Below, in pieces: positions 30,801-63,515 of a stretch of 64,000 nucleotides of DNA (position 1 is the first letter of the stretch; the number at the start of each line of letters is the position of its first letter). A program made the translations under genes and the position numbers. Origin of the DNA: an uncultured virus (IMG/VR IMGVR_UViG_3300042868_010712) (taxonomy: Duplodnaviria; Heunggongvirae; Uroviricota; Caudoviricetes). Location: the IMG/VR virus record IMGVR_UViG_3300042868_010712, positions 1 to 64,000 of that record; one strand, written 5' to 3'. The notes under the pieces are model-generated. The model did no database searches. It was given only the letters and a program-made list of their open reading frames with translations, and was not told the DNA's origin.

Positions 30801-32321
30801 ATAAGTCTTATGCCAAATACCAGCATATCCGGCATATCTATGGACCAATACGCTAATGCTTTGATAGTAAGAATACTAGCAGAAAATGCTGTAAATCTTA
30901 GCTACTACATTAATGATGCATACCAAGGCGCAATACCTTACCCTCCTGATGGGTACATAGCCATTTGCCCGAGTGAATTTCCAGATGCAAGTATAAGCTT
31001 TTTGAATGGGGGAAATTTACAAATTAAAGCAACCACCAGCAATGTGAGTGGCACGTCGGCTGAGGTTATACAAGACTTTACATATCAGCCAGCCGCAAAC
31101 GTACTTAATTTTACTCCTCCCCTCGTTACGCTATTATCTGCAACTGCAGGCGTAAATAACTGCGCAATAACGTTCAGTACGTCCTGTGGGTTAGCGGGCT
31201 CAATAAGCTACAAGTGTCGCATAACCGAAACTGATACATTTACATTCAGGGAACTCAGTGTTCCGACCCCCACGTTTTCCAACGGAGTTTTCAGTGCTAC
31301 AATCCTGAATCTAATTACAGGTGTAAATTACATAATAGAATTACAGGCTGACTACTACGGAGTACGTTCAGTAGCTTGGAGTAAAGGTCTGCATTCAGGA
31401 ATTATAGTTGGTCCTCCTACAGCCCCTAAAAATCTGTCAGTGGTATCTGCGAATAACTCACTAATAGTTAGCTTTCCTGTAGTCAGCGCAGCCACCAGCT
31501 ATAGGTACAACACCAAAACAGGAACAAACCCAGCAACACAAGATCAAACAGTAACCCATACTACGACCGCAGGAATTGTCAGCTTTACAATACCTAATCT
31601 AACTAACGGAACACTGTATCTAGTTAAGGTCAAAGCTGTAAATTCTTACGGTGCAAGCCCAGATAGCTCAGGAGCAAACGGCACCCCTGCAAATGTACCG
31701 TCTACAATAAACACTGATAAGATAGCATTAACTCGTGGAGACCAACAAGTTAATGTCAATATCTCCCCGCTTCCAGCAAATAATGGAAGCCCTATACAAA
31801 AGTTTAAATATTCGTTGGACGGGGGCAGCAATAGTGTTTTGACCGTAAGTACATCGCTACCCATAACAATCACATCATGGCAAGGGAGTCCTCTACAAAA
31901 TGGAGCAAGTTATTCTTTGATTATTGCAGCTGTAAATGCCGCAGGAGCTGGAGTCTACTCGAACGCAGTCTCTTTTGTTCCAGCTAAAGTTCCCTCAGCG
32001 CCTGCACTAAATGAGTCTGTAATTAACGGAAGCTTGAGTGCGATTATACGATTTACAGCCCCCACAGATGCAGGCGGCCTGGAAATAACAAATTACGAAT
32101 ACTCGACAGACAATGGCGCTACTTACAAGGCCCTTAGCCCAGCAAGCGCAGTCCCGTCAGTTGAAGGTTATGCCGGGTTGGCCATAAGAATCACACAGAG
32201 GTCTTCTGGTGTAGGCTTATTACTACAGGCTAATACTTTTTATGTTATAAAAGTTAGAGCAGTGAACGCTGTAGGTCCTGGAGTAGCCTCAAACTACGTA
32301 GTAGCTCAACCTACAGCTTAA
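21882..32321 (+). CDS. Giant (3479 aa) virion fibre/adhesin with putative-Ig, carboxypeptidase-regulatory-like and FN3 domains; paralog 2
   Basis: Repeated GLP.GL.....G.I.G (Ig), G.V....G..GV (CarboxypepD-like) and GGSEIT.YEYS.D.G / Y.VK.RAVNA.G (FN3) motifs. Confidence 0.8.
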   Translation: MAALEYLTQNSLTAYPFRRSRPAFTTNFQQENYTESLVSDEWFYDIIFVSYSTSIRSVYVSSIEKTEDGRLILGFSNAETLQLIDNRLIEVPADKLENHLNNRAQSFFPVTSTSFSVKIVFGAGLVGSTAFSYTYNSAQTLLAASAVIPCPPKLLSLTFKAFQSERNESGQVISELVPIITYTPSDYSPIWRFGHNLNFALESLNYGGISVEPGGGMGLFDSCTPAGDITDVYTVSNVSPNDEGSLFLNTLACQSLNLLSENDKSFLTLTNQLDNYSEDIIIAGHSLTLKNFCEAKCPRENINAFAHYINRVADAASEISKIAFLDKETRGLGTPTTDIFNVSSFCVSNLAEAGATGASSQFNNPFLRCTEVTEPIDTFIDCNASFIKYFHEFRTLQIFYNSVTTRSFIILEVIDENTVRLNESPTAGQNLWFRVKDNGVISNMNCATLAHNQKIELAKKTYFKVRYTTSETQDYDGSQVTVTSLSIGIYNPSALGITSVRVDFNVSPKLTQVGAIKVRKKETVDLMNTAEAVLGCKEYAIVEVAYKIACGEVDADISIQVMDTTGAVEEQIGETYYIPSINGALCVDSPIGATKVTRQLKHSQVTSDFVYPPLPSVVTPQEEWTTSNVTIIGDAPAGFAVSAYQPWTWPSQQNAVEICQTYPKYCLLNGNPLLACGWIKLFYALVPSEIPDNNKSKRYEIIFRNTTATAAELGNLGAYAPLPKYNYSKVVIIWLASPVILSPLGVNYTESNPALIDYDTTYTDENPLLTVSVDNMLRFSEAFPGDDEAYYYIVTGLPAGLTFNEATGSITGKISSDAPSGEKIAITISAHNPDGYAQNPQTIYLQPELRAVPEISLDLTTPGPTFDIDNLTVYTTVASFYKINTVNLPILYYRIYFGAGQSLPNGLYFDQAVGLITGRITSNTAGSLSFEITAINRFGESDRLAISINYEIFSRPQITAPTASQYFNLLFNSVYTIESPLFTITATQAFGGTDNFAEGLTDLTRNSYTADAWNGTSGIPPGFFLDQYTGKFYGVLDSAEIPTDLVPVTYPIFLKATNPLGQSEKLVYLVLGSPEGAPVISTGSTITIARNTEYTLASPLFTISATGDPDTYAATGLPAGLTCDESTGKIIGSVNSSLYAGVYTVTLEAQNDYGSAAPITRLIKVPLTSPTISPADTYTIFVGATYANIFTVTPPQIIGGEISNISLSQIPPGLSFTNNTLSGIPTNTGNFNISVTASSLTLGISRSTVAISISRQLYTMTGSVLDDQGSGVAGVGIVMRGATGAITSNDGTYSLSDIPSGTFNVTAVKAEAIITPTRKSATFPPTGGGSTLSGINFTAVGPLRLITGTLKNSVDQTPIANAVINDSFQIVRTNSYGQFELYTSRNAVTLTLTASNYIIPDQQVNAGSTSVILNMLGNPIYSLAGTITAEENIQGSIQVTAINTATEEEFSTQALITNNTAYYYLDLKSGTYTILPSSNSPQGFSFFGLPASVTMNVSRIVNFSANKPGKIYGTVGYVRTNSQDYTFPLPGAVVSASLDTNAQPGPGLSYIGNIGSTGAASVTTNSLGEYVLENLTYGTYIITTQLEGYTFAVGSAALGTQATALVNFIPSQAFDISGRVYGDTAKSINLYIARVYLKEVSTGKLYRTGTNLNDSTYIIRNVPSSVNYSVEPLDYVLSAELIGCTFTLESDPSGKVSVNNSSLFAKDFILDSVLPILPPTPEIENIQLASNREATVYYNIGTSNEGCPVIEKYYAISETPGATGATGATGPSWVLIPSAYGATGATGSTTPGFEGGVAGATGATGATGATGTFFIIPSTSIVLGKDYDIKLKSVNLYGETISSQYSLTTPKPPEAPTITSSTVLYTAPPGLSVEYTAPTETYGYSITRYEWRYRVTADLLTGAVFNSPAWTAWVATPSLSPSPLIITNIPTARIIDIQLRAVSTIGSGVASNILQDITVASSPVTPNNFIFPEGYDKRTPEMLAEGGGIKVYFYQGANGGSEITDIEYSLDGEVTTVSTGLQPQINTYNYFIISGLTGGQTYTVKIRAVNARGYSSWLTYNSKKIIAKPISLALKPEHLVVHSPNLYLNLSSTDDIFDTGGALRIASCVFDIAVDNDSWSPDPLNPDEARTLENSGLVMLSDNQSYGNYFSPKTIVLAPLNTTYTQLYSFLDDRTYYVRCTPTNNENLTGEPSPFTSVTIAASLPTIAAPIKIRTVPGEGSLRVTAATAARSILLEEAGGAEPNLYPGSWEFINTLPPLRSEANETLRFAVEVRDPLDLETLISTHYIYPTYTYGGDFDLPSSVRRYLRRSYFAPPVDDFWGNITGLSEGQQYKLTYYMENPIGQGPKSNIFITTSRVGTPQSFVGVTFGTPDMFNTIPVSFSLSYYISTDYPSSLVQYAVYPNDESTSLYYSIDDGETYILIDNYVASEGDIDTAWLGVLEENPDWYPYELLETVDWTIFAPDFVGYDWERTLENGGLIYPPEGTIRTLDNGGYYPGALRERRLDNGGYIYNLSEPRTVANGGLLPNTAKLNCMLPTPNNGAYQATYLIKASNNLGDGVVLSFYSFRRTPTEAVLPTSLSDIQQAQGQLTFSASDQENYSSPTMLRCSFANTLIVYEAPLTNPFVWTDIPSGTYSGGIIIEAYNNAGTGARSEISGTVVIATPSQPILTYNATYNGPIDLVIGRPTSTAGQAITFYEITVTTQEEYGDSWQDKGIRQASVAYTGQITNYTINTTGYVVKINTRFLVVVRARNQYDTGISASLFVYPHMYGSIPSSYSVTPGADKYTLSWRLGYTGNLPGGFKINGEILGTPHTFTGEPGLLNRLYTKEVPTQIYTTQTYVLEQYNSAGLSVNTSGQPQPLTVYAQGAYSPAPPLITQALQYSENTYQINIAVNPLWKTTINNKTIEYKFWVENETNFNDAPVQGPYPWGSTNTNELYLPDLVQGVTYKFACRLAYAYGGYGLRYTEYTEAISISLMPNTSISGISMDQYANALIVRILAENAVNLSYYINDAYQGAIPYPPDGYIAICPSEFPDASISFLNGGNLQIKATTSNVSGTSAEVIQDFTYQPAANVLNFTPPLVTLLSATAGVNNCAITFSTSCGLAGSISYKCRITETDTFTFRELSVPTPTFSNGVFSATILNLITGVNYIIELQADYYGVRSVAWSKGLHSGIIVGPPTAPKNLSVVSANNSLIVSFPVVSAATSYRYNTKTGTNPATQDQTVTHTTTAGIVSFTIPNLTNGTLYLVKVKAVNSYGASPDSSGANGTPANVPSTINTDKIALTRGDQQVNVNISPLPANNGSPIQKFKYSLDGGSNSVLTVSTSLPITITSWQGSPLQNGASYSLIIAAVNAAGAGVYSNAVSFVPAKVPSAPALNESVINGSLSAIIRFTAPTDAGGLEITNYEYSTDNGATYKALSPASAVPSVEGYAGLAIRITQRSSGVGLLLQANTFYVIKVRAVNAVGPGVASNYVVAQPTA
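27162..27314 (+). repeat. GGAGCAACA/C repeats encoding (Gly-Ala-Thr)n
   Basis: Three GAT tracts inside one FN3-like unit. Confidence 0.85.
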
Positions 32322-41263: not shown

Positions 41264-41812
41264 ATGAAGAGTAAAAAAGAAATACTAAAAGACGAGAAAG
41301 CTCCTGTACTGGTCTTGCTTGCGCTCGTAACTAAAGAATACGGTAAAGAGTGCTATGAGTGGGAACCTCTTGTTTTAAAAGCAGAACTGCAGGAAGATTT
41401 TGATGTAACTATCTCAGATTTGCAGTCAGATAAAATACAAGCAGGCATCACAATCTTAACCACAGATCAGTACGAAACAAACGTGCCTGTTTTTGAGACT
41501 CTCAACTATCTACTAAACAATCAGCCTGACGACCTGCAGGACTTTAATCCGCTTGAAGCAGAAGAGGTGATATGTGGATTAACAGAGGCGTATCTGATCC
41601 GAGGAGAAAAAATGCACTTCTCTCCTGAAATTAGGGTGTACACAGGATTAATATTTGAAGATTATGGTATGCACAAGCCGCCTACGTTGTTCCCTGAAGC
41701 CTTAATGAAAGAGCGCGACGGCAATGATGAAACCAAGAACGATGCTCTCCAAGAGTTGTTTGACGAAAAAATTAAACTTGTTAAAAAATACCTAGACAAT
41801 GCACAGCTATAA
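41264..41812 (+). CDS. Hypothetical protein
   Basis: ATG 41264 (MKSKKE) preferred; TATAAT lies 6 nt upstream. Confidence 0.65.
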   Translation: MKSKKEILKDEKAPVLVLLALVTKEYGKECYEWEPLVLKAELQEDFDVTISDLQSDKIQAGITILTTDQYETNVPVFETLNYLLNNQPDDLQDFNPLEAEEVICGLTEAYLIRGEKMHFSPEIRVYTGLIFEDYGMHKPPTLFPEALMKERDGNDETKNDALQELFDEKIKLVKKYLDNAQL

Positions 41813-42911
41813 TACACTTCTTGCAAATATTTATGAAAAGCCTAACGCTAAAAGGCTAGAGCATCTGTATAACATACTTTTTGAAACCATACCCACTACA
41901 GTAACCTTTTCTGATAGCTTTGAGATGGATTCTCTGAAAGCCATCGAAGAGCACTTTGACATCTTTACAAGTGACATAACAGTGGTAGGATCTAGGCTTG
42001 TAGAAGAAAACGTGTGGGTAGGTAAGAAGGGTACTTATAGAGATATACTGCTACATTCCTCGTATAGGTCTCCAGATGGAGATCATCCTATGCTGGGTTC
42101 AGTATTTGGTAGCAGTATTAAAAAAGAAGAGATCGATAGCTTGCATGTAAGTGTTAGAGCTGCATGTAAAGACAGAGAAGAGGCCAAGCTGTTATGCGAT
42201 CTTTTGTTACCGTTTAAACTGCAGCTTAAAAATAAGATTTACATGCTTACAGCTAGCTATGGAGATCTCAGCCTATCTCCGTTGCCCACAATGGATGTAA
42301 ACGGTAATTTAGCTCTAAACTATGGCTCAGAGTTCGAAGCTTTTCATGAAAAAATCATGGATAGCCTTAAAACAAAAACATCTGGGCTGTATCTGTTCAG
42401 CGGGCCTCCAGGTACAGGCAAATCATCTTACATCAAATATCTCACAACCTGCGATATCGGACGTAAGATAGTATACATCCCAGGAGGGATGATTGAACAG
42501 CTTGTATCTCCTGAGATGGTTCCGCTACTGGTCGAGAACAAGAATATTATTCTGGTAATCGAGGATGCTGAGAAAGCTTTAATCTCTAGAGAAGTATCAG
42601 CAAACACAGACATGGTACAGACTGTACTCAACCTTACATCAGGCTTCCTTGGCGATGCGGCTAATGTTTCTATCATTGCCACATTCAATACATCCAAGGA
42701 TAACATTGATTCTGCGCTACTACGTAAAGGTCGATTGAAGCTTAGTTATGAGTTTGATAAGCTCTCATTAGCGGACACTATCAATTTGGCTGAATCTCTA
42801 GGATTAAATACCTCCAAAATTACTGAAGGTATGACTCTTGCAGATATCTACCATATGGAAGAGCAGCCAGGCTATGAGAAGCCAGAAGAAAAGCGTGTAG
42901 GCTTTTTCTAA
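41799..42911 (+). CDS. AAA+ ATPase
   Basis: Walker A GPPGTGKS, Walker B ILVIEDAE, ALLRKGRL, C-terminal RVGF. Confidence 0.9.
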   Translation: MHSYNTLLANIYEKPNAKRLEHLYNILFETIPTTVTFSDSFEMDSLKAIEEHFDIFTSDITVVGSRLVEENVWVGKKGTYRDILLHSSYRSPDGDHPMLGSVFGSSIKKEEIDSLHVSVRAACKDREEAKLLCDLLLPFKLQLKNKIYMLTASYGDLSLSPLPTMDVNGNLALNYGSEFEAFHEKIMDSLKTKTSGLYLFSGPPGTGKSSYIKYLTTCDIGRKIVYIPGGMIEQLVSPEMVPLLVENKNIILVIEDAEKALISREVSANTDMVQTVLNLTSGFLGDAANVSIIATFNTSKDNIDSALLRKGRLKLSYEFDKLSLADTINLAESLGLNTSKITEGMTLADIYHMEEQPGYEKPEEKRVGFF

Positions 42912-44631: not shown

Positions 44632-44781
44632 AAACGTAATAATAAAAGCAAACCCAGAAAAGCCAAAAATGTAACAGAAGAGGTATTTAAAGTTGTAGAA
44701 TCGTCTTTCGACGCATTTCTCAGTATCTTCAATGGCGGCAATTCTGACAAGAAAAAATATTATAGAGTCTACAAAGATTGA
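44620..44781 (+). CDS. Small basic hypothetical protein (53 aa, not in ORF track)
   Basis: MIRHKRNNKSKPRKAK...; overlaps the terminase start head-to-head. Confidence 0.4.
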   Translation: MIRHKRNNKSKPRKAKNVTEEVFKVVESSFDAFLSIFNGGNSDKKKYYRVYKD

Positions 44782-44788
44782 CCTGCTA

Positions 44789-44797
44789 TGCTATAAT
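44789..44797 (+). promoter_or_regulatory. Extended -10 promoter
   Basis: TGCTATAAT, 10 nt before ATG 44808, at the head of the long + strand block. Confidence 0.55.
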
Positions 44798-44807
44798 AGC
44801 AGGTGTT

Positions 44808-44975
44808 ATGAGTAGAACTATTAGAAAATATCAGGTCAGAGATAAACGAAATCGGTATAAGCAGATCGAACGTCAAAAGCTGGAAGACCAGTATTATACA
44901 GATGTAGCAAAATCGCATGACAGAAAAATCCGTAAAAAGGGTCTTCGAGAAGAAGAATCCGACGAACAGCAGTGA
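44808..44975 (+). CDS. Small basic hypothetical protein
   Basis: MSRTIRKYQVRDKR... directly after the promoter. Confidence 0.45.
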   Translation: MSRTIRKYQVRDKRNRYKQIERQKLEDQYYTDVAKSHDRKIRKKGLREEESDEQQ

Positions 44976-45507
44976 TATAAGTAATATAAAAAGAGGGCGT
45001 GGAAGACCAAAGGGCGCCAAAAATAAACCAAAAGTTGAATCTGTTCCGACTGTAGCTAAAAAAAGAGGTCGGCCTAAGGGTTCAAAGAACAAAGTTAAAA
45101 CAAGCAGTTATCAGGAAATTCAAGTAAAAGGTAAGTACCTTAACCCTATAGCTTCGGCTAAACCTGAAATAGCTCGCATTCCTAAACCTCCAGGTAAAAG
45201 AGGAAGACCTAGGAAAAACGATAACCCACTAGCTGCGTCTTCAGTTAAAAAAGAAGAGCAGAAGGCTGAACTACCTACAACATCAGGTAATCATCCCTTA
45301 TTTCCAGCCGTAGCCTGGCTTGAAAAAAATATGCATCACAACGAGCTGCAATACTATCGCAGTCGTGCGCACAAAATAGGCTCAACCATACAGGTAGCCA
45401 TAGCTTCAGACATCCTGGGTTTCTTTAATGTTCAGGATGCGGAGATATGCAAACAAATCAAGAAAAACACATTCATCGCAAGCGTAACAAAACATGAACT
45501 GCATTAA
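44917..45507 (+). CDS. AT-hook DNA-binding protein
   Basis: Three AT-hooks: KRGRGRPKG, KRGRPKG, KRGRPRK. Confidence 0.8.
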   Translation: MTEKSVKRVFEKKNPTNSSDISNIKRGRGRPKGAKNKPKVESVPTVAKKRGRPKGSKNKVKTSSYQEIQVKGKYLNPIASAKPEIARIPKPPGKRGRPRKNDNPLAASSVKKEEQKAELPTTSGNHPLFPAVAWLEKNMHHNELQYYRSRAHKIGSTIQVAIASDILGFFNVQDAEICKQIKKNTFIASVTKHELH

Positions 45508-47083
45508 TAAAATCAAAAACTATCAAAGAGCCGGCTATTCTGGTGTATTCGTACTAACTCACGAAGAAGCCAGATTCATGCTCGAGCTTACAACTCTAAG
45601 CAACTTAGAGTATAATGCTCTCAACATTGTCGAATGGGACACACAGAAAGGCCTTCTATTCCGGTCAGGAAAAACTAAAATAGGGTTTCAAGAGGACACT
45701 ACTAAAAACACTAGCGATCTACTGGAATATATTCAAAATTATTCGCAGACCAATACAATCTTTGTGTTGAAAGATTTTCATCTGCATTTTGATAAAATTC
45801 TCAATATTCGTCTATTGAGGAACGCTTGGAATAACCTAAAGCGAATGGGTAATATGATTGTTTTTGTAGGGCATAAATACGCAGTACCCGGCGAGCTCCA
45901 AAAGGAGGTACAGCTACTAGACTATGACCTTCCAAATATAGAAGCACTTACCGAGAGGTTGATGTATATCAAAAGCTCGATTGATAAAGGCAGAGAAGAG
46001 GCAGGTAAGGCGCCTACTGAGCTTGATAACAGTATTATAGAGGCAGCAACGGAAGCTGCGAGAGGCATGACCAGCCTTGAGGCTGAGAACGCTTTTGCTT
46101 CCGCCTGGACAGAAACCGGAAAGTTTAATAGCGTTTTTGTTGAAGCAGTATTTAAAGAAAAAATTGCGCAGCTTAAAAAGAACGGATTATTGACCTACAT
46201 GGAGCCAAACATCAGCTTTGATAATGTTGGCGGCATGCAAGGCCTAAAAACCTGGCTAACTACTAGGAAAAAAGCGTACGCTAAAGAAGCTAGAGCATAC
46301 AATCTACCTTTACCTAAGGGTATGCTATTGGCCAGTGTTCCAGGTACTGGGAAAAGTCTGATTTGTAAGGCAATTGCTAAAGAGTTTGACTGTCCGCTGT
46401 TTGCTCTGGATATTGGTAGCGTATTTGATTCGCTTGTTGGTAGCAGCGAAAAGAATATGCGAGAGATCATTAAAACTGTTGAAAGCGTGGGTAAGTGTGT
46501 GATCTTGATTGACGAGATCGAGAAAAGCTTGAGTAACAGCGCAGTCAGTGGCTCTGGAGACAGTGGCGTAGGCAGCCGTATCTTCGGTACTTTCCTGAGC
46601 TGGCTAAATGACCGCACAAATCCTGCGTTCATTGTTGCCACCACGAACAACCACACACTGTTGCCTGCAGCATTGATCCGCAAGGGGCGTTTTGATCAAC
46701 TGTTCTGGGTAGACCTACCTACAGCAGAAGAGCGTAAAGAAATCTTCACTGTCGTGATTAATAAGTATAATAGAGATCCAAAAAACTTCTCTATTAAAAC
46801 TTTAGTAAACGGCTCTGAAAACTTTACAGGCGCCGAGATTGAAGAAGTGTTTAAAGACGCGCTATACAAAGCGTTTGATGCTGGTGAAGAAATTAATGAT
46901 AGCCATGTTATGGAGGTACTGTCGGAGTTTATTCCGTTCGCAGTGTCACATGAAGAAGATCTAAAGACGATGCGCAAGCAAGCGCAAGGTAAGCTAGTTA
47001 TGGTAAACAGTAAAGGTGATCCTATTGCCGACGTTCAGAAAAACATGAGAAAGCTGAGTATTGCAATCGGGGTAGAAGAGTAA
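45494..47083 (+). CDS. Ycf46-like AAA+ ATPase (degenerate N-terminal AAA plus active C-terminal AAA)
   Basis: THEEAR, FVLKDFH, VGGMQGLK.WL, SVPGTGKS, LIDEIEK, LIRKGRFD, FTGAEIE. Confidence 0.85.
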   Translation: MNCINKIKNYQRAGYSGVFVLTHEEARFMLELTTLSNLEYNALNIVEWDTQKGLLFRSGKTKIGFQEDTTKNTSDLLEYIQNYSQTNTIFVLKDFHLHFDKILNIRLLRNAWNNLKRMGNMIVFVGHKYAVPGELQKEVQLLDYDLPNIEALTERLMYIKSSIDKGREEAGKAPTELDNSIIEAATEAARGMTSLEAENAFASAWTETGKFNSVFVEAVFKEKIAQLKKNGLLTYMEPNISFDNVGGMQGLKTWLTTRKKAYAKEARAYNLPLPKGMLLASVPGTGKSLICKAIAKEFDCPLFALDIGSVFDSLVGSSEKNMREIIKTVESVGKCVILIDEIEKSLSNSAVSGSGDSGVGSRIFGTFLSWLNDRTNPAFIVATTNNHTLLPAALIRKGRFDQLFWVDLPTAEERKEIFTVVINKYNRDPKNFSIKTLVNGSENFTGAEIEEVFKDALYKAFDAGEEINDSHVMEVLSEFIPFAVSHEEDLKTMRKQAQGKLVMVNSKGDPIADVQKNMRKLSIAIGVEE

Positions 47084-47114
47084 ACAATAAACAAACAATT
47101 AAACAATAAATTAT

Positions 47115-48116
47115 ATGACAAACGAATATCAAGTAACTGAAACATTGCAGAAATATTATGACAAAGTTTTCCAAGACGGAAAGCTTGTAAATATTCACAT
47201 CGGTATGTGGGGAATGAGTTATAACCTCACAGAAGAGGACATTAAGCTCGATAACAAGCTACCAGATACTATCAAGCTGGGTAAGAAAATGCTTATCAAG
47301 CCTGCAGTATACAACAAGTTCAAGAACATTGAGCAAAAGATCCGTAAATATCTTTACGTTAATTCTTTTGATTTCCCTCTAGTAAGTCAGGCGCATTTTG
47401 TACCTAAGGCAAAGTATCTAGAGGTTTACACGACGCTAGATAAGATGCGCGTTGAATTCATGCAGATGGTTGACGAGTTCGTAGAAAAATACGAAGACTA
47501 TAAGAAGGAGGCTATCGCATATTACCAAGAGCATAAGGATACGGTTAGTGTAGACGATTTAGAAAAATACTATCCAGCTGCAGCTAATGTACGAAGCAAG
47601 TTTTACTTCGACATTGTATCTTTTGAAATTGCACTACCTGCTGAGTTTAAAGAACTCAATTTGCAGGACGAGATCAATCGAGAAATTGCTGGAAACGAGG
47701 CTAAGTCAAAGGCGCTTGAGAACTATAAAACTGAGTATGGTAAGCAGATCAGTACGCACATGGCAAAGATCAACGACTTTGTGGGTGAAGTCACAGCCAC
47801 ATTGCGTTCAAAGATCGTTGAGCATTGCTCTAAAGCCCTGGATAAAATAAACAAGAAAGAAGTTGTGTCTGAGTCTAGCATCAAGACATTGCTTAAGCAT
47901 ATTCAAGAGTTCAGAGATATGAACTTTGTTGACGACAAGGCCGTTGAGGCTGAGTTGGCTAAAGTTGAGCGTTTACTTGTAGGTAACCACGACTTTGATA
48001 AAGACAAGGACGCCATGGGTCTACTTCAGCAGCATCTGAACACTCTTGTAAAAGAGGCTGAGAGTCTGTCTGACGTAGCAAACGTTTCAGGTGAATATTT
48101 CAGGAAACTTGCATAA
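47115..48116 (+). CDS. DUF3150-like protein
   Basis: VNIHIGMWG...LGKKMLI.P...FVP pattern followed by long helices. Confidence 0.65.
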   Translation: MTNEYQVTETLQKYYDKVFQDGKLVNIHIGMWGMSYNLTEEDIKLDNKLPDTIKLGKKMLIKPAVYNKFKNIEQKIRKYLYVNSFDFPLVSQAHFVPKAKYLEVYTTLDKMRVEFMQMVDEFVEKYEDYKKEAIAYYQEHKDTVSVDDLEKYYPAAANVRSKFYFDIVSFEIALPAEFKELNLQDEINREIAGNEAKSKALENYKTEYGKQISTHMAKINDFVGEVTATLRSKIVEHCSKALDKINKKEVVSESSIKTLLKHIQEFRDMNFVDDKAVEAELAKVERLLVGNHDFDKDKDAMGLLQQHLNTLVKEAESLSDVANVSGEYFRKLA

Positions 48117-48119
48117 CCG

Positions 48120-48422
48120 ATGTATCCAGGAGACGATCAAAACGGAACAACTGACCCTCCATATTTTGACACCCTAACTGTCAAGTTTAGGGGAGACAAT
48201 TATGAGGTTGCATTACCATATTGCGAAGTAGCCAATGGCGAGATCACCGAGATAAATGACAAGGCTGTTAAGATAGCTTATTTAAAAGATGGAGTAAAAG
48301 ATACTCTGGTAATGTCACATCCTGATTTTGTCACAGTTATTGAAAAAGCATTCGATATCAAAGAAATCACAAAGCTGAGCATACAGCGCGCCAACAGCTA
48401 CGACACAATAAAAATATTATGA
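48120..48422 (+). CDS. Hypothetical protein
   Basis: 100 aa, coupled to the next gene. Confidence 0.6.
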   Translation: MYPGDDQNGTTDPPYFDTLTVKFRGDNYEVALPYCEVANGEITEINDKAVKIAYLKDGVKDTLVMSHPDFVTVIEKAFDIKEITKLSIQRANSYDTIKIL

Positions 48423-48808
48423 GTCATTCAGTAGACATCAAAACACAGTTCAAAAATACCAATAATCTACTTGCGCAGTTTAAAGCGCTTGGGTGGAGGA
48501 TTGAAATGAATACGAAGTGTACAACATATCCTAGCGATCCTCGCCGTGGAGAGATACACAAGTATGTAGCAAAAAATCCCAGTTCTATAGGATACGATGT
48601 GGGAGTTAACCTAGATAATGAGGGCAACGCCTACTTTGTGTGCGACTTCTATGATCGTAGCATCGAGCAGAGCTTGGGTAAAAACCTGCAGAAAGTCAAA
48701 CAGGGCTATGCACTCAGCGAAATCAAAAAGCGCTTGCGTGAAGAAGACCTGGAATATAAGGTAAGCGAACTACCTACAGGCGAGCTAATCGTGGTTGCTG
48801 AAAAATAA
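48419..48808 (+). CDS. DUF1257 (Ycf35)-like protein
   Basis: MSH..IKTQF...L..LG...YDVG...D.Y...QGYA pattern. Confidence 0.7.
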   Translation: MSHSVDIKTQFKNTNNLLAQFKALGWRIEMNTKCTTYPSDPRRGEIHKYVAKNPSSIGYDVGVNLDNEGNAYFVCDFYDRSIEQSLGKNLQKVKQGYALSEIKKRLREEDLEYKVSELPTGELIVVAEK

Positions 48809-48809
48809 T

Positions 48810-49010
48810 ATGTCTAAAAAAATAGTATTTAAAATTACTAAAGATGGCGATGTTGTAGTTGATAAAGTTGAAGGCTACGGATCGTCATGCCTTGAGGCTA
48901 CCAAGTTCATAGAAAAAGCCTTGGGTAAAGCAGATGAGTCTACTCGCAGAATGACTGAGGAATACGAAGAACCTATAAAGGTAGATAATTCTGAGCGTAT
49001 ACGCAATTGA
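48810..49010 (+). CDS. DUF2997-like protein
   Basis: IVFKI.KDG.V...VEG.G.SC..AT..IE.ALG...TEEY; ATG 48810. Confidence 0.7.
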   Translation: MSKKIVFKITKDGDVVVDKVEGYGSSCLEATKFIEKALGKADESTRRMTEEYEEPIKVDNSERIRN

Positions 49011-49270
49011 TGAAAACAGTCATATACGTAGACAAAGATGGCAACGTCAGCGGACTGGCTGACGATGTTATAGATAGATTGACTTCTCTAGGTGACAAGC
49101 AAGTAACCCGAGTATCTAACGTGGAATTTGACCATACAACACAGTTATGGTCAGCCACAGATCTCGATGGAGCAGTCATAGCTACAAGTCCAATCAGGAG
49201 CGAGGTAATCAATATGGAACGAGATTACCTAAATAAAAAAATAGAAGAGAGCTTCGCAGCTTCCCTCTAA
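49007..49270 (+). CDS. Small hypothetical protein, last gene of the AAA module
   Basis: 87 aa, TTGA overlap with the DUF2997-like gene, followed by a hairpin. Confidence 0.65.
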   Translation: MMKTVIYVDKDGNVSGLADDVIDRLTSLGDKQVTRVSNVEFDHTTQLWSATDLDGAVIATSPIRSEVINMERDYLNKKIEESFAASL

Positions 49271-49277
49271 ACCCACA

Positions 49278-49310
49278 TCAACCCTTCAGGTCCAATCCCT
49301 GTTGGGTTGA
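49278..49310 (+). terminator. Hairpin closing the AAA module
   Basis: TCAACCC..CAGG-loop-CCTG..GGGTTGA; the U-tract is weak and offset. Confidence 0.45.
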
Positions 49311-49320
49311 ACACTTTTAT

Positions 49321-49707
49321 ATGCAAAGACTATTAATTGAAATAATGTGCTGTGACAGCAAGCACGGCAGACACGCAGGAAAGGTAGTTGTAGTAGAGTT
49401 AAACTCTGATGACGAAATGTATAGAGTATTGACTCACAGCGTCAGAACTAACCCTCAAAAGCACCAGAGGAAAAAAATAGCCAGCAGGATACGATTACAG
49501 ACAGAGCACCAGGAAGCAGCCCTTAGCATGCATAAAGCTATTTTGCGGGAGAAACAAAAGGCAGGATTTAGGTTTTTAAGAAATGGAGAAAAGATAGCCG
49601 TACCAAACTTTAAAGATATTTTTAAACCTACTTTAAAAGCAAGAAAGGCTAAGCCTAAGCTTAGAGAAGTAAAACCAGAAGAACCAGCGTATAGAAAACT
49701 ATCATAA
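49321..49707 (+). CDS. Hypothetical protein, possibly WGR-domain-like
   Basis: Beta-strand N-terminus followed by EAAL..HKAILREKQKAGF, like the WGR C-terminal helix. Confidence 0.45.
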   Translation: MQRLLIEIMCCDSKHGRHAGKVVVVELNSDDEMYRVLTHSVRTNPQKHQRKKIASRIRLQTEHQEAALSMHKAILREKQKAGFRFLRNGEKIAVPNFKDIFKPTLKARKAKPKLREVKPEEPAYRKLS

Positions 49708-57707: not shown

Positions 57708-57893
57708 ATGTTGTGCGACGAAATTGAGCAAAAGCTGCGAAAGCAGCTAGCAGATATAAAAGTGTGGGCTACTCATTTGATAGAGAATAGTCGACCACCA
57801 GCAAACCCTGCAGGAGAGTCTAGCTACTATTGCGCTAAGGCTTTTCTGACAGAAGAGTTGAAAAAAATTGTAACAGAAGAAACACATAAATGA
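57708..57893 (+). CDS. Hypothetical protein
   Basis: 61 aa. Confidence 0.5.
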   Translation: MLCDEIEQKLRKQLADIKVWATHLIENSRPPANPAGESSYYCAKAFLTEELKKIVTEETHK

Positions 57894-58780
57894 TTAAACG
57901 AGGCGTTTGCTGTATTGTGCTGGCTCTAGAGCCTTTGAAGTTCAGAACTATCACATACAAAAGCTTCAGCTCTCTACCAAGGGAGCTGGGGCTGGCAAAG
58001 CTAGGCGAAATCATCGAGCACAACCTCGATGTTACCGCGCGAGCTATAGCTTATTGCGGAGAGCATAATCTAAACTACAGATTGAGCTCTAGCCTGTTTC
58101 CGCTTATCACATACGATAAGGCGGAGGTAAAGATGAGGGATTTGCCTAACTTTTTCCAGATATTGGCAAAAGTGCAATATATCAAAGACACTAGAGAAAA
58201 GTTCCCTGATGCGAGGCTGAGCATACATCCTGATCAGTTCAATGTTCTAGCCAGCGAAAATCAAGACGCTGTAATTAGAACAATCAGAGAACTGGATTTC
58301 TATTCAGACTTTATGAACGATATCGGCTGCTATGACATCATTATGAATCCTATTAACATTCATATGAATGCTAATGGAGACTGGGATAAGATTGCAGACA
58401 AGTTTGTAGAAAACTATTCTAGATTAAAACTACACACCAGAATGCGTCTTGTATTGGAGAACGACGACAAGGTTTCAGGCTGGGGTGTTAAGAAGTTAGA
58501 TCAGTATATGAAGCCTAGAGGAGGTTTTCCTATTACCTTCGACTATCTTCACCATAAGTGTCATCCTGATGGTCTCTCTGAAGAAGAGGCATTCAACATT
58601 GCCTACGAATCATGGGGACCAATAATTAGGCCATTGTTTCACTATAGTGAATCAGCTCCAGATCAAAACAACCCTCGTAAACACGCAGACTATGCTACAA
58701 GGTTGCCAGATACGTATGGTAAGTCTATAGACCTAGACTTCGAGTTTAAGCTGAAAGAAAAGTCATTTGAGAATCTATGA
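57890..58780 (+). CDS. uvsE: UV damage endonuclease
   Basis: GVCCI, YRLSSSLFP, RLSIHPDQFNVLAS, LVLENDD, FDYLHH, FHYSES, RKHADY, EFKLKE. Confidence 0.92.
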   Translation: MIKRGVCCIVLALEPLKFRTITYKSFSSLPRELGLAKLGEIIEHNLDVTARAIAYCGEHNLNYRLSSSLFPLITYDKAEVKMRDLPNFFQILAKVQYIKDTREKFPDARLSIHPDQFNVLASENQDAVIRTIRELDFYSDFMNDIGCYDIIMNPINIHMNANGDWDKIADKFVENYSRLKLHTRMRLVLENDDKVSGWGVKKLDQYMKPRGGFPITFDYLHHKCHPDGLSEEEAFNIAYESWGPIIRPLFHYSESAPDQNNPRKHADYATRLPDTYGKSIDLDFEFKLKEKSFENL

Positions 58781-59521: not shown

Positions 59522-61579
59522 ATGGAACTTCAAAAACTAATACTCAAAAACTTCAGGAGTCATAAAAATTTGACGCTTGATTTTAACGCAGGTGTAACCG
59601 GTATTGTTGGCGGCAACGGCACCGGCAAGTCGAGTATTGTAGAAGCTATAATCTTCCTCCTTACGGGGGAGGGTTATGGTAAGACTAAGGCAGATATGCT
59701 TACTGTAGGACAGGTCTCTGGTCATGTGGTTGGGCATATGCTGATAGACGGCAAGGAAGCCATCCTGGAGCGGCACACGGATACCGCAAAGGTAAACCTT
59801 AAATACGATGGCAAGGTTTACAAGAAGAGCAGTGAAGTAAACGAGCTGTGGGACCAGCTGTTCCAGATCGACAAGCATCTAGTACAGAATGTAATTGTCT
59901 CAAATCAGGGTGAGATAGCGTTACTGTTCAACGGAGACAATAGTACTAAAGAGAAGCTCTTTCAGAAGATCTTCATGGTACCTAATACAACCAAGCTCAG
60001 AGATACAGTCTGGAATGGTTATATAAAGACTGCTCCTCCAGAGTATCCTGTAAAGAACTTGGATGAGCTTAAAAACGATCAGCAGCTCTTAGAGCAGATT
60101 ATTCTGATGACCTCAGAGCAGCTGGCTACGCTGGATGCTCCTAAGCTACAGATTGATTACAACAGGCTTACCTCTCGTAAGACTGAACTAGAGAAAGTCA
60201 TCAGCGACGAGCGGGTATCGTCAGGGCTTAGCGACAAGCTTACTAGTCTTCTAGGTGAGCTAGCGGATATCTCAAGCAAGGTAGTACGTATAGAAAATAA
60301 CCTAAGTAACATCAACTATGATGAAATAATAGGGGCTATTGCTGAGATGGACGCAGTAGAGCGCCAGGTAGCCCAGAAGACCAGACTGAGTGCAGAATTA
60401 GCGCAGCTTAAGCGGCCTGCAGTTAATGTTACAAAAGATGAACTTGATAATCTATCTGCAGACATTGCCCAACAGGAAGGCAAACTTAAGGAGAAAAGAG
60501 ATACGCTTGCAGGATTAAACGACAAGCTAAAATCCTACGAGCAGAAGGGTCTGTCTTCTGAGACTACCACATGTCCCACATGCGGCTCAGAGCTGAAGGA
60601 TACTGCTCAGGTTATAGCACACATTCAGGCAGAAGTTGATATGGTTATTTTTGAGGGAATTAAACTCAAAGATAAACTGACAGCACTGCAGAAGGATAAA
60701 GAAATTAAGCAAGAAGAGTACAAACTGGTTGAGGAATATCAAAAAGCTAGAGATACACTTAATCTTAAGCTAGATGCTATAGGCGAGCTTGATTATAATC
60801 CAGAAGATCATGGTTTATATAAAATAATAGCAGAGAAATACAAGAACGATAAGTCCACGGTATCAGCGCTAAAGATCACAGAGAGTCAAAAACTACAGGA
60901 TGTTAACAGCGTAAGGTTGGCTATTGCCGCCCAGCGTGTATATGATGGAGCACATCCTGTAGGAGCAGAGGCTGAGCTTAGTGAGGTTGACACAAACCTG
61001 GCATCTGTATCCCGAGGTATACAAGCAGCCAAACAGCTAGAGATAGACCTGGCTGTAAAGACACAAGAGCTTAAAACTCGCCTAGAAGATATTAGGGAAA
61101 ATCAGGAGTATATTGAAAAGAATAAAAAGCGTGAAGAGTATACAAGTACCCTAGACGCTATTTATGACATTTTCCATCCTTCCAAATTTCCAAGAGCCTT
61201 GATCCAAACCTACAGTTCTACTGTAACTGAGTATATGAATGAGGTATTGGCTTCATTTGATTTCCCATACACAGCCAAAGTAAACGAAACTTTCGGAATT
61301 GATATATTCAATGAAGAAGGTTTACAGCTGCCTGCTGTATCAGGCGGTCAGCAGGTTATGGTCGGCTTTAGCTTACGTCTAGCGCTACATAACATGTTCG
61401 TAGGAGCATTCCCGTTCATGATTGTGGACGAGGGCAGCTATGGACTGAACGCAGAAAACAGCAAGAAATACTTCGAGATTATTCGAAGCCTGAACAAAAC
61501 AAGCAAGTTCAAACAGGTGATCGTCATCGACCATCACCCTGAGTTGAGCGATTACGTAGACAACACTATTAACTTATGA
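59522..61579 (+). CDS. sbcC: Rad50/SbcC-like (gp46) ABC ATPase
   Basis: GGNGTGKSS, Q-loop SNQGE, Zn hook CPTCG, signature SGGQ, VDEG, IDHH. Confidence 0.92.
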   Translation: MELQKLILKNFRSHKNLTLDFNAGVTGIVGGNGTGKSSIVEAIIFLLTGEGYGKTKADMLTVGQVSGHVVGHMLIDGKEAILERHTDTAKVNLKYDGKVYKKSSEVNELWDQLFQIDKHLVQNVIVSNQGEIALLFNGDNSTKEKLFQKIFMVPNTTKLRDTVWNGYIKTAPPEYPVKNLDELKNDQQLLEQIILMTSEQLATLDAPKLQIDYNRLTSRKTELEKVISDERVSSGLSDKLTSLLGELADISSKVVRIENNLSNINYDEIIGAIAEMDAVERQVAQKTRLSAELAQLKRPAVNVTKDELDNLSADIAQQEGKLKEKRDTLAGLNDKLKSYEQKGLSSETTTCPTCGSELKDTAQVIAHIQAEVDMVIFEGIKLKDKLTALQKDKEIKQEEYKLVEEYQKARDTLNLKLDAIGELDYNPEDHGLYKIIAEKYKNDKSTVSALKITESQKLQDVNSVRLAIAAQRVYDGAHPVGAEAELSEVDTNLASVSRGIQAAKQLEIDLAVKTQELKTRLEDIRENQEYIEKNKKREEYTSTLDAIYDIFHPSKFPRALIQTYSSTVTEYMNEVLASFDFPYTAKVNETFGIDIFNEEGLQLPAVSGGQQVMVGFSLRLALHNMFVGAFPFMIVDEGSYGLNAENSKKYFEIIRSLNKTSKFKQVIVIDHHPELSDYVDNTINL

Positions 61580-62057: not shown

Positions 62058-63515
62058 ATGAACATAAAGATCGTTCGATTTGATGGCGGGCTAAAAATAA
62101 ACCCATGTCCTGCATACGTTTCAAAGTTTCTCAAGTATCATCATAGAGAAATGAAGAGTATTGGGTACCAGCGGCAATGCGTGTTTGTTGAAAAATTACT
62201 ATACGCTACAGATCAGGACGGCTCTATATATACGCTACCAGGTTTTTATCACAGCCTGGTAGCGTTAATAGGTAAGCAGATGGATACTGTGGAGACGGAA
62301 GATCTCAGGACACCCATGCCTGACCCTGATTGGGCTAGCGTTAAAAAGATAAAGCTTAGAGACTACCAAAAAGAACCCACCTTAGATCTGATATTCAAAG
62401 GAATGGAAGACAGTGGGGTAATTAATGCTACTGGGGGGTTTGGGAAGACACACATCCAAGCTATCACTTACGCAGCGTGGAATGGTCTGAATACAATTCT
62501 AGCCATACCTCTAAAGCAGGTGGTCCTGCAGACGTATGAAAAGTTTAAGCAATTTTTCCCTGATAAACATATAGGTATAGTTGGCGACGGTAAACATGAT
62601 ATAAGTAATGATATTACTATAACTACGTTTAGGTCTTTACCCAGCTGCGCACTAGAGAAATGTCAATTGCTTCTAGTTGATGAAATGCAGTCTGCAGGTC
62701 AAGAGACTTTTCAAAACGCACTAAAACAAATGAAGCCTTACAGGGTGTTCGGCTTTTCAGCTACCACGGAAGGTATATTCAACAACACAGACAAGCTGTT
62801 AAAGGGCCTGTTTGGTGATGACCTGATATACTTCCCATACGAGGACGCTGAGGAGGCCGGCGCGGTTGTACCTGGTATGGTGTACATGGTCAACATGCCT
62901 GAAGACTTATTTATTGAAAATTATAATAATTTTGAAAGCAAGTTAAAGTACGGAATTAAAAGGTGTGATAAGCGCAACGAGATCATAGGACGAGTATGCT
63001 CCTTGATTCCAAAAGAGTGGCAGACTATTGTATTTATTGACCATGTTAAAGATCATCTGATTCCTATGTACAAGTATATGCCTAAAGAGACAAAATACCT
63101 GCATAGGGAGACCAGCAAGAAAAACGTAGGCGCATTTGCACTGACGCCGAAGCAGCAAAATAAAACAATCGAAGAATTCAGTAATAACGAGTTTCAAACA
63201 TTGATAGCTAGCGATGCGTTTAGAGCAGGTGTAGATATTCCTAACTGTCGTGTAGTCATTCAGGCTAGCGGCGGAAGCAGTAAAGTAGAAGTATTGCAGG
63301 AAGCTTACAGGGGAAGCCGAATACTTACGAAAGAACAGCGTGATAAATTTGGTCTTTCAGAAAAAACGCATTTTGTGCTTGTAGATTTTATGGACAACCA
63401 TGATCCTACACTAGAGGCAATGGCGAAAAAGCGGAAAAAGTATTATGAAGAGCAAGGATGGACAATCACTACAGTTGATCGCCCCGAAGACATAACATGG
63501 AATAGACAAAAATAA
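62058..63515 (+). CDS. Superfamily 2 helicase (UvsW/XPB-like)
   Basis: LRDYQ, GGFGKT, VDEMQ, SAT, GVDIP, Q..YRG.R. Confidence 0.88.
   Translation: MNIKIVRFDGGLKINPCPAYVSKFLKYHHREMKSIGYQRQCVFVEKLLYATDQDGSIYTLPGFYHSLVALIGKQMDTVETEDLRTPMPDPDWASVKKIKLRDYQKEPTLDLIFKGMEDSGVINATGGFGKTHIQAITYAAWNGLNTILAIPLKQVVLQTYEKFKQFFPDKHIGIVGDGKHDISNDITITTFRSLPSCALEKCQLLLVDEMQSAGQETFQNALKQMKPYRVFGFSATTEGIFNNTDKLLKGLFGDDLIYFPYEDAEEAGAVVPGMVYMVNMPEDLFIENYNNFESKLKYGIKRCDKRNEIIGRVCSLIPKEWQTIVFIDHVKDHLIPMYKYMPKETKYLHRETSKKNVGAFALTPKQQNKTIEEFSNNEFQTLIASDAFRAGVDIPNCRVVIQASGGSSKVEVLQEAYRGSRILTKEQRDKFGLSEKTHFVLVDFMDNHDPTLEAMAKKRKKYYEEQGWTITTVDRPEDITWNRQK

Follow-up and report, generated by a model that had tools for sequence, protein, structure and literature searches.

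We analysed a window of 64,000 nucleotides from an uncultured virus (IMG/VR IMGVR_UViG_3300042868_010712, positions 1-64,000) that carries, at ~44.9-49.3 kb, an operon of seven plus-strand genes built around an AAA+ ATPase of the Ycf46 type. The ATPase is accompanied by members of the DUF3150, DUF1257 (Ycf35) and DUF2997 families, by two further small proteins, s100 and s87, and by an AT-hook-type protein encoded ahead of it. We found that DUF1257 and DUF2997, together with s87 in phages, travel with the ATPase across unrelated phages, and that the first two also do so in cells. The view that the genes form a conserved module and not a chance cluster is supported. The genes and signals of the operon are as follows.

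44768..44797, plus strand: sigma-70-like promoter with extended -10 element, TCTACA-18-TGcTATAAT (scan, 10/12 matches, TG present)
44781..44804, no strand assigned: palindrome with 9-bp arms centred on the -10 element (-14.4 kcal/mol, z -4.28); a possible operator
44917..45507, plus strand: AT-hook-type protein, 196 aa, from an open reading frame (ORF); lineage-specific, possibly the operon's DNA-binding regulator
45494..47083, plus strand: Ycf46-type AAA+ ATPase, 529 aa; degenerate AAA fold at residues 1-230, active classic AAA domain at ~240-500
47115..48116, plus strand: DUF3150 protein, 333 aa (PF11348, 5.3e-13)
48120..48422, plus strand: s100, 100 aa, without a family; accessory, lineage-specific
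48419..48808, plus strand: DUF1257 (Ycf35-family) protein, 129 aa (PF06868 E 0.047; phrog_20456), with an invariant N-terminal Met-Ser
48795..49010, plus strand: DUF2997 protein (PF11211, 1.1e-9), 71 aa from a TTG start, more likely 66 aa from the ATG at 48810
49007..49270, plus strand: s87, 87 aa (phrog_38408), the fourth conserved small component in phages
49278..49310, plus strand: stem-loop after the last gene (-17.6 kcal/mol, z -3.87), then ACACTTTTAT; the probable operon end

The junctions between successive genes measure, in order, -14, +31, +3, -4, -14 (or +1 from the ATG at 48810, which is the start position used by relatives) and -4 nt, so that the seven genes are tightly coupled: five of the six junctions overlap or leave at most 3 nt, and the sixth is a gap of 31 nt. 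The terminal hairpin was equalled in stability by 0/200 shuffled sequences, and a simple terminator scan did not list it. The initial annotation had placed seven coupled genes between an extended -10 promoter and a hairpin, and both the gene set and the hairpin were borne out. The promoter-like site is the best of 14 hits, but the shuffled region gives 12.0, so that the scan by itself is not significant; TGnTATAAT does recur at the matching offset in 16/44 relatives. Palindromes of differing sequence occupy the equivalent spot in ~12/44 relatives.

The ATPase and its two AAA folds

Pfam recognizes a single AAA domain (PF00004) in the ATPase, at residues 277-407 (100.1 bits against a cut-off of 21.2), with a weak lid match besides, and the whole protein falls in the functionally unannotated family phrog_8638 (3.4e-118). 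The motifs SVPGTGKS, ILIDEIEK, TTNN and RKGRFD provide the Walker A, Walker B, sensor 1 and arginines of the second region of homology (SRH), and G284, G286, K287, D340, E341, N385, R396 and R399 are invariant in 16/16 aligned relatives of 42-79% identity. The window ATPase thus has the catalytic hallmarks of a classic AAA+ enzyme, namely Walker A and B, the sensor-1 Asn and two SRH arginines. Sequence matches to solved structures cover only residues 240-500, and the best of them is the D2 domain of Cdc48/p97.

The structural model (mean predicted local distance difference test score, pLDDT, 73.9) reaches 85-92 over most of residues 1-230. In the model, residues 1-227 form a complete AAA alpha/beta-plus-lid fold, which matches p97 D1 (5ifs_D; Z 10.8, root-mean-square deviation (rmsd) 3.8 Å, 194 residues) and the PAN ATPase domain (5eqt; Z 10.7, rmsd 4.4 Å, 203 residues). 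Over the whole chain, Foldseek aligned the model to the D1-D2 enzymes 55LCC, p97, Rix7, NVL and Pex1/6 (best E 4.1e-16), and the predicted architecture is that of a tandem D1-D2 AAA protein. We found no Walker A motif in residues 1-230; a conserved LTHEExR stands in its place, and KDFH occupies the Walker B position of the first fold. The proposal that the N-terminal AAA domain is eroded and the C-terminal one intact is right, because the N-terminal domain has the AAA fold but no P-loop. The model supports a dead D1 and a live D2, as in tandem AAA+ unfoldases; Pex1/Pex6 likewise have an inactive D1. Where a P-loop would stand, the first fold (45494-46180) has strongly conserved T22, H23, E24, E25 and R27, and where Walker B would stand, D94 and H96; these polar motifs may form a binding or metal site.

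The likeness to p97/Cdc48/VAT, Pex1/Pex6, Rix7/NVL and SPATA5 lies in the two predicted AAA folds per chain and in the best score of the active domain against Cdc48/p97 D2. Unlike these enzymes, the phage ATPase has a D1 without a P-loop and no N-terminal adaptor-binding domain, the D1-like fold of the model beginning at residue 1. Pore loop 1 of classic AAA+ enzymes reads aromatic-hydrophobic-Gly; in the window ATPase it is Ser-Leu-Val-Gly. Relatives have L, H, Y or M where the aromatic residue is expected, and V315 and G316 are invariant. The curated Cdc48, FtsH, PAN and IteA models all score far under their cut-offs, and TIGR01243 (CDC48, NCBIfam), at 106 bits against 802.65, places the protein outside the Cdc48/p97 subfamily.

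BLASTP of the phage ATPase against P0168 (NCBI: stress-responsive protein Ycf46 [Microcystis]) gave 33% identity over 490 aa (E 3e-100), aligning phage residues 12-500 with 10-487, and close relatives of a Chroococcus ATPase (L166) are named 'stress-responsive protein Ycf46' or 'AAA domain-containing protein ycf46' (NCBI, UniRef). The homology thus runs over the full length, degenerate motifs of the N-terminal AAA fold included, and supports the Ycf46-like assignment. Cyanobacteria and the plastids of algae have conserved both Ycf46 and Ycf35, and we know of no mechanism for either.

In several relatives the ATPase gene is split within a catalytic motif, with its halves in different frames. 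In one group (L043:8017-8811, also L044, L046, L047, L033 and L034) the break falls in Walker B, ILID|EIEK in L043, where the ~800-bp insert carries a 179-aa HNH-type endonuclease ORF. In another (L050:7900-8192, also the L051-L055 group and L072) it falls at Walker A, with a ~290-bp insert without an ORF in L050. We suspect a homing element or intron; Rfam found no intron family at gathering score on the relatives with a split ATPase. The Rfam hits on these loci included a transfer-messenger RNA (tmRNA) 3' fragment at L046:1-129 (52.7 bits) and an abiF RNA motif at L043:2583-2619 (47.2 bits).

Partner proteins and their linkage to the ATPase

We assembled 53 related IMG/VR loci whose ATPase is at least 40% identical to that of the window; for 42 of them, 3.3 kb or more of downstream sequence is available. 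All 42 have DUF1257, DUF2997 and s87, and 41/42 have DUF3150, with gene order and strand identical in all 42, although such synteny is weak evidence alone because the loci are relatives and owe it largely to shared descent. A distant set comprised seven cultured-phage lineages with a full-length member of the ATPase family. Five of the seven (HJ05, SM1, P11VFA, JP1 and RcDurkin) have DUF1257 and DUF2997 downstream of the ATPase, and three of the seven have s87. Both DUFs are Pfam-positive in HJ05, SM1 and P11VFA, where they lie two to four genes past the ATPase and s87 directly follows DUF2997; in JP1 and RcDurkin the DUF2997 protein is Pfam-positive and the protein before it matches the DUF1257 profile (2.1e-8 and 1.5e-9, respectively). 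Phages that infect Aeromonas, Pseudomonas, Rhizobium, Agrobacterium and Rhodobacter carry the module; in Rhodobacter phage RcDurkin it comprises genes 60-64 and in Rhizobium phage P11VFA genes 094-090. Co-occurrence of the homologues in other genomes was the key test set beforehand, and it holds in the related loci and in most of the distant lineages.

The operon DNA had no nucleotide-level match among cultured phages, and tblastn of the window DUF3150, DUF1257 and DUF2997 proteins against phages gave none either, since these proteins are too small or too divergent. One locus, L080, on a 211-kb contig binned as a Sediminibacterium metagenome-assembled genome, contains the AT-hook gene, the ATPase, DUF3150, DUF1257, DUF2997, s87 and Mre11. 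The contig most likely comes from a large phage and was placed in the bacterial bin either as a hint to the host or as an artefact of binning.

The linkage extends to cells. In four whole genomes, 7/10 ATPase loci adjoin DUF1257 and/or DUF2997, including a Chromatiaceae genome and an Acidobacteriota contig, but this sample is biased because three of the four were chosen after a linked locus had been seen. Of 61 genomes sampled from the cyanobacterial phylum, 41 have a member of the ATPase family, and the 30 best ATPase loci from these 61 genomes served as a sample free of that bias. DUF1257 lies within 1.5 kb in 14/30 (13 directly downstream on the same strand), DUF2997 in 4/30 and either partner in 17/30, in agreement with the association of DUF1257 and DUF2997 with Ycf46-type ATPases in cyanobacteria that the initial annotation gave. 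At the cyanobacterial locus L089, a DUF3150-like gene (3.7e-7 to the profile), DUF1257, DUF2997 and the ATPase stand in a row and adjoin a large helicase-methyltransferase gene. Most of the 80 best ATPase matches in genome_contigs are Acidobacteriota chromosomal genes between rpsT/holA and phoH-ybeY. The nearest cellular relatives of the ATPase there (L099, L100, L109 and L153), set among these same genes, look like a branch of the Ycf46 family that does housekeeping work and lacks the partners.

The DUF2997 assignment is straightforward, the window protein passing the Pfam gathering score with 38.5 bits against 24.1 (38.1 bits in the genome search). The family has invariant G18, G29, C32, T36, E40, G44 and R51. 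The DUF1257 assignment holds only through relatives: the window protein misses the gathering score of PF06868 (14.4 bits against 22.2, E 0.047), but a profile of its phage family matches the proteins at L089 (4e-13) and L086 (2e-11), of which the former is a Pfam DUF1257 protein at 1.2e-10 and the Chromatiaceae copy corresponding to the latter (G003:C357) one at 1.4e-19 in the genome search. In the Atlas, PF06868 is found in 49%, 88% and 62% of the members of the three clusters nearest to the window protein. In an alignment of 12 DUF1257 sequences that spans phages and cyanobacteria, M1 and S2 do not vary and the conservation of H3 is at least 90%. The DUF1257, DUF2997 and DUF3150 profiles found nothing below E 0.1 among solved structures, and a search for fusions ('Rosetta stone') among longer DUF1257 proteins returned two matches, both with PF06868 only.

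Structure prediction suggests that DUF1257 and DUF2997 form a heterodimer. The interaction prediction score from aligned errors (ipSAE) is 0.77 (runs 0.76, 0.79 and 0.77), and the best of three controls scored 0.00; the mark of the pair is reached by 116/157 solved complexes and 2/215 mismatched pairs, a calibration that is only rough here because we supplied our own alignments for each protein. The runs have at least 81% of their contacts in common, with a partner pLDDT of at least 52. The predicted interface sets DUF1257 residues 120-129 and 88-105 against DUF2997 residues 6-20, the C-terminal strand of DUF1257 pairing in the model with the N-terminal strand of DUF2997.

DUF3150 passes the Pfam gathering score, as the initial annotation had it (PF11348, 49.3 bits against 24.9, profile positions 6-168 of 257), and its expected occurrence on mobile elements is supported: outside phages it is common on conjugative plasmids (823 plasmid records carry it, 810 of them conjugative) but rare in genomes (2/301 of the Pseudomonadota). 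In 3/3 contexts examined, namely pYR1, a Comamonas plasmid and a locus resembling an integrative and conjugative element (ICE), the order is AAA ATPase, SSB, (Bet, Exo), DUF3150 and a vWA/CobT-like gene, and in the one locus scanned the ATPase carries AAA_5/CbbQ_C. The phage and the plasmid/ICE contexts together mark DUF3150 as a mobile-DNA protein found beside AAA+ motors of two clades and recombination genes. This IncC-type/ICE block of AAA_5 (CobS/MoxR-like), SSB, Bet, Exo, DUF3150 and vWA (CobT-like) shares with the phage operon the pairing of DUF3150 with an AAA+ ATPase, the recombination genes and the setting on mobile DNA. It differs in its AAA_5/CbbQ_C-clade ATPase and its vWA partner, and neither DUF1257 nor DUF2997 was seen in it. 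Its plasmid versions of DUF3150 are also longer (379-454 aa) and match the phage DUF3150 proteins in the N-terminal half only, at 26-29% identity. The window ATPase belongs to PF00004, and neither the operon nor its neighbours contain a VWA domain, so that the operon is not a block of this type.

The DUF3150 model (pLDDT 76.4) has an N-terminal alpha/beta part at ~22-172 and long C-terminal helices at 183-332. In a viral structure library it matches eight DUF3150-like proteins at E <= 1.4e-6. The PDB fold search barely covered the N-terminal alpha/beta part, and among the rows listed there was no ESCRT-III- or PspA-like protein of the kind that a Vps4-type substrate would be. Generic helical bundles were rejected as relatives, the best (ClyA, residues 179-321, VIA wide; Z 11.0) lying below the level that is meaningful for helical proteins.

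Three further phage lineages have DUF3150, or a protein in its place, after the ATPase. At the distant viral loci L066, L067 and L069 (ATPase 31-33% identical), a Pfam-positive DUF3150 comes directly after the ATPase; at another eight loci and in the Corndog group, what follows the ATPase is a different, mutually conserved family of 249-302 aa. The ATPase of the cluster O mycobacteriophage Corndog (gp96) matches ours over 92% of its length at ~30% identity, and in cluster O it is always followed by a protein of ~266-275 aa. The model of the window DUF3150 protein matched a 275-aa protein of Mycobacterium phage Dylan in Foldseek (E 6.1e-4, template-modelling score 0.24-0.29). The gene after the Dylan AAA-ATPase encodes 275 aa and was equated with that match by organism and length only. 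The models thus suggest that in one of the three lineages the protein after the ATPase resembles DUF3150.

The remaining genes differ in their standing. The AT-hook call has three GRP cores and a conserved C-terminal part behind it, but its Pfam AT_hook score is just under the cut-off (16.7 against 17.4 bits). An AT-hook homologue lies 5' of the ATPase in 43/53 related loci and was found nowhere outside the lineage; s100 is present in 33/42 related loci, was likewise not found outside the lineage and has no family in Pfam- or PHROG-type library scans. These two are probably not core. By contrast s87, which has no Pfam family and falls in virus-only Atlas clusters, is a core component in phages. 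The description of a self-contained seven-gene set therefore needs narrowing: the module is conserved, but the AT-hook and 100-aa genes are specific to the lineage.

Genes around the operon

The upstream flank of the operon holds structural genes, a second gene of the AAA type and a divergent gene for the large terminase, and the downstream flank Mre11/SbcD-like, UvdE, Rad50/SMC-like and helicase genes. The Mre11-like neighbour that had been proposed is present (Metallophos 2.3e-5; PHROG SbcD-like 6.5e-7); the proposed WGR gene (49321-49707, plus strand) gave no Pfam WGR match at E <= 10. This 128-aa gene just past the hairpin was found in only 29 loci of the related group. The second AAA ATPase (41799-42911, plus strand; 370 aa, PF00004 7.8e-12, phrog_14322) sits ~2.6 kb 5' of the operon ATPase, beyond the divergent terminase gene, a position kept in related loci. 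Among the structural genes, a 3479-aa ORF (21882-32321, plus strand) has Ig-like (He_PIG), fn3 and CarboxypepD_reg domains, and its product is probably a fibre or decoration protein of giant size. The UvdE UV-endonuclease, Rad50/SMC-like and SF2 helicase genes (57890-58780, 59522-61579 and 62058-63515, respectively) make up a DNA-repair/recombination block 3' of the operon.

The nearest relatives of the window lie on contigs of up to ~226 kb. Sequencing runs containing part of the stretch gave 20 rows from 13 studies, all of freshwater, river or lake DNA, with no RNA run among them.

Possible functions of the operon

The closest known counterpart of the phage operon is Ycf46 of cyanobacteria and plastids, with Ycf35 (DUF1257) and DUF2997. 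Besides the full-length homology of the ATPase, a DUF1257 gene stands directly 3' of ycf46 in 13/30 cyanobacterial loci, and DUF2997-DUF1257 pairs occur. The phage operon keeps DUF1257 and DUF2997 with the ATPase and adds DUF3150, s87, s100 and the AT-hook protein. In cyanobacteria, by contrast, the best-scoring DUF2997-DUF1257 pair is apart from the ATPase, beside a ferredoxin gene, and PMC4284462 describes a duf2997-ycf35-fed7 cluster. According to PMC13683863, the S. elongatus ycf46 operon consists of three genes with a copG-like gene first, is induced by severe stress and darkness with an activity opposite to that of ribosomal gene expression, and encodes a product cited as an interactor of KaiC. 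In S. elongatus PCC 7942, where ycf46 is gene 0417, Synpcc7942_0418 may be the DUF1257 paralogue, to judge from other cyanobacteria. According to PMC5940233, freshwater red algae have lost ycf35 and ycf46 together with other plastid genes. In the literature searched, supplements excluded, we found no mechanistic or phage-related treatment of DUF3150, DUF1257 or DUF2997, and in the papers examined on Ycf46 and phages the label serves only as a COG-style annotation. We conclude that the module is real, conserved and undescribed in the literature searched, and that it is a variant of the theme of an AAA+ unfoldase with cofactors.

On balance we favour, with some caution, the view that the products of the operon make up a remodelling machine of several proteins around a Ycf46-type AAA+ motor, a cofactor-guided unfoldase that acts on DNA-associated or host complexes. 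The ATPase would form a hexamer in which the D1 tier is inactive and structural and the D2 tier does the work, and the DUF1257-DUF2997(-s87) complex would be its cofactor, either selecting clients or being itself a regulated client. DUF3150 may be a mobile-element-specific adaptor or client that couples the motor to DNA transactions, a role suggested by its company of SSB, Bet, Exo, AAA_5 and vWA genes on plasmids and of Mre11/Rad50-like genes here. The task of such a machine during infection would be to unfold some protein complex, or to take it apart, on DNA or in the host. The simplest role for the AT-hook protein would be that of the operon's own regulator, binding the palindrome over the -10 element, which fits with the small DNA-binding genes that head the ycf46 operons of S. 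elongatus (the copG-like gene) and of G002 (an RHH-like, that is ribbon-helix-helix-like, gene).

Beyond the shared descent of the related loci, several results weigh against this interpretation. The window ATPase lacks the aromatic residue of pore loop 1, and the Leu in its place may mean that the enzyme threads weakly or not at all. The complex prediction covered the DUF1257-DUF2997 pair alone. In 13 of the 30 best cyanobacterial loci, the nine best matches among them, neither partner lies within 1.5 kb; of the best 80 ATPase matches in genome_contigs, only 4 have DUF1257 or DUF2997 by profile; and PF06868 and PF11211 were not found in 5/5 Acidobacteriota/Myxococcales genomes. These last two results indicate that the ATPase family can work without the partners. 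No DUF1257, DUF2997 or s87 was detected in the Corndog-type phages or in Javan368. As to DUF3150, the Foldseek search of its model in the PDB returned no row at E <= 0.001, the structural link to Dylan gp94 is a single Foldseek row, and the Corndog gp95 family was rejected as DUF3150 by profile comparison (hhalign probability 0.24%).

An alternative is that the phage uses its copy of a Ycf46 stress module to take over the state of the host, imposing a growth-arrest-like condition or redirecting host physiology, with no role in phage DNA transactions. The full-length homology to Ycf46, the pairing of ATPase and DUF1257 common to phages and cyanobacterial chromosomes, and the stress- and darkness-induced expression of the S. 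elongatus operon are all in keeping with it. However, the module occurs in phages of the five bacterial genera named above, and in the one proteobacterial genome set searched DUF1257 and DUF2997 were found only beside ATPase copies. It also leaves the phage-only s87, DUF3150 and the DNA-repair neighbours unexplained, and we regard it as unlikely.

A role in defence or counter-defence, in which an ATPase of the IetA/SgiA type restrains a toxic partner or dismantles a host immune complex, is very unlikely. The AAA domain is indeed related to that of IetAS/SgiAT, with a PADLOC IetA match at 7.2e-29 and an NCBIfam IteA match (NF042959) at E 1.2e-23, and in PMC10954446 the sgiAT system of SGI1 pairs a SpoVK/Ycf46/Vps4-superfamily ATPase with a protease toxin. 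A protein with an Acb2/Tad1-hairpin match (L068:12109-12750; 2.1e-9), from the family of anti-CBASS/Thoeris sponges, is moreover encoded ~3.6 kb downstream of a distant ATPase. Yet the IteA model gives 83.9 bits where 510 are required, so that the window ATPase is not assigned to IetA/IteA, and these matches span only the generic AAA domain. The N-terminal architecture differs, and in place of the S8 protease partner there is nothing comparable here: domain-library scans of the seven operon genes found no peptidase family and no known toxin domain. The Acidobacteriota homologues, finally, sit among the housekeeping genes rpsT, holA, phoH and ybeY.

A proteolytic machine can hardly be the answer. 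In such a machine DUF1257 would be a small peptidase-like partner fed by the unfoldase, its Ser-His active site exposed after removal of the initiator Met, and both the conserved Met-Ser-His N-terminus and the presence of proteasomal ATPases among the closest solved relatives of the ATPase would fit. Known N-terminal-nucleophile hydrolases are, however, far larger than DUF1257 (~100-130 aa), DUF1257 has no sequence match to any solved structure, and its conserved N-terminus could equally serve binding or recognition. That there is no system at all, the genes being neighbours by shared descent in one phage lineage and acting independently, is already disfavoured and scarcely credible: most of the 42 syntenic loci do come from one related group of large phages, to which s100 and the AT-hook gene are confined, but the families recur by the ATPase in varying gene order in unrelated siphophages, Chromatiaceae, Acidobacteriota and cyanobacteria, and DUF1257 and DUF2997 are predicted to bind each other.

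Returning to the favoured remodelling machine, a bolder version of it, which we offer as a long shot, is that Ycf46, Ycf35 (DUF1257) and DUF2997 are parts of one ancient AAA+ machine that phages captured and extended with DUF3150 and s87, and whose clients are ATPase rings of the RecA/DnaB fold. The cyanobacterial client would be KaiC, and phages and plasmids would offer replicative helicases or recombination complexes. If this is true, the phage version would load, unload or dismantle such rings as phage DNA metabolism begins.

The linkage joins three orphan 'ycf'/DUF families, the Ycf46-type ATPase, DUF1257 and DUF2997, into one set. Because the set is kept in unrelated phages and binding between DUF1257 and DUF2997 is predicted, the function of these families becomes directly testable, and the cultured Pseudomonas, Aeromonas, Rhizobium, Agrobacterium and Rhodobacter phages that carry the module are genetically tractable. 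DUF3150 gains a context, as a mobile-element protein beside AAA+ motors of two clades and recombination genes. What is currently annotated merely as an 'AAA-ATPase' followed by hypothetical proteins would thus be a widespread early- or middle-gene module of phages.

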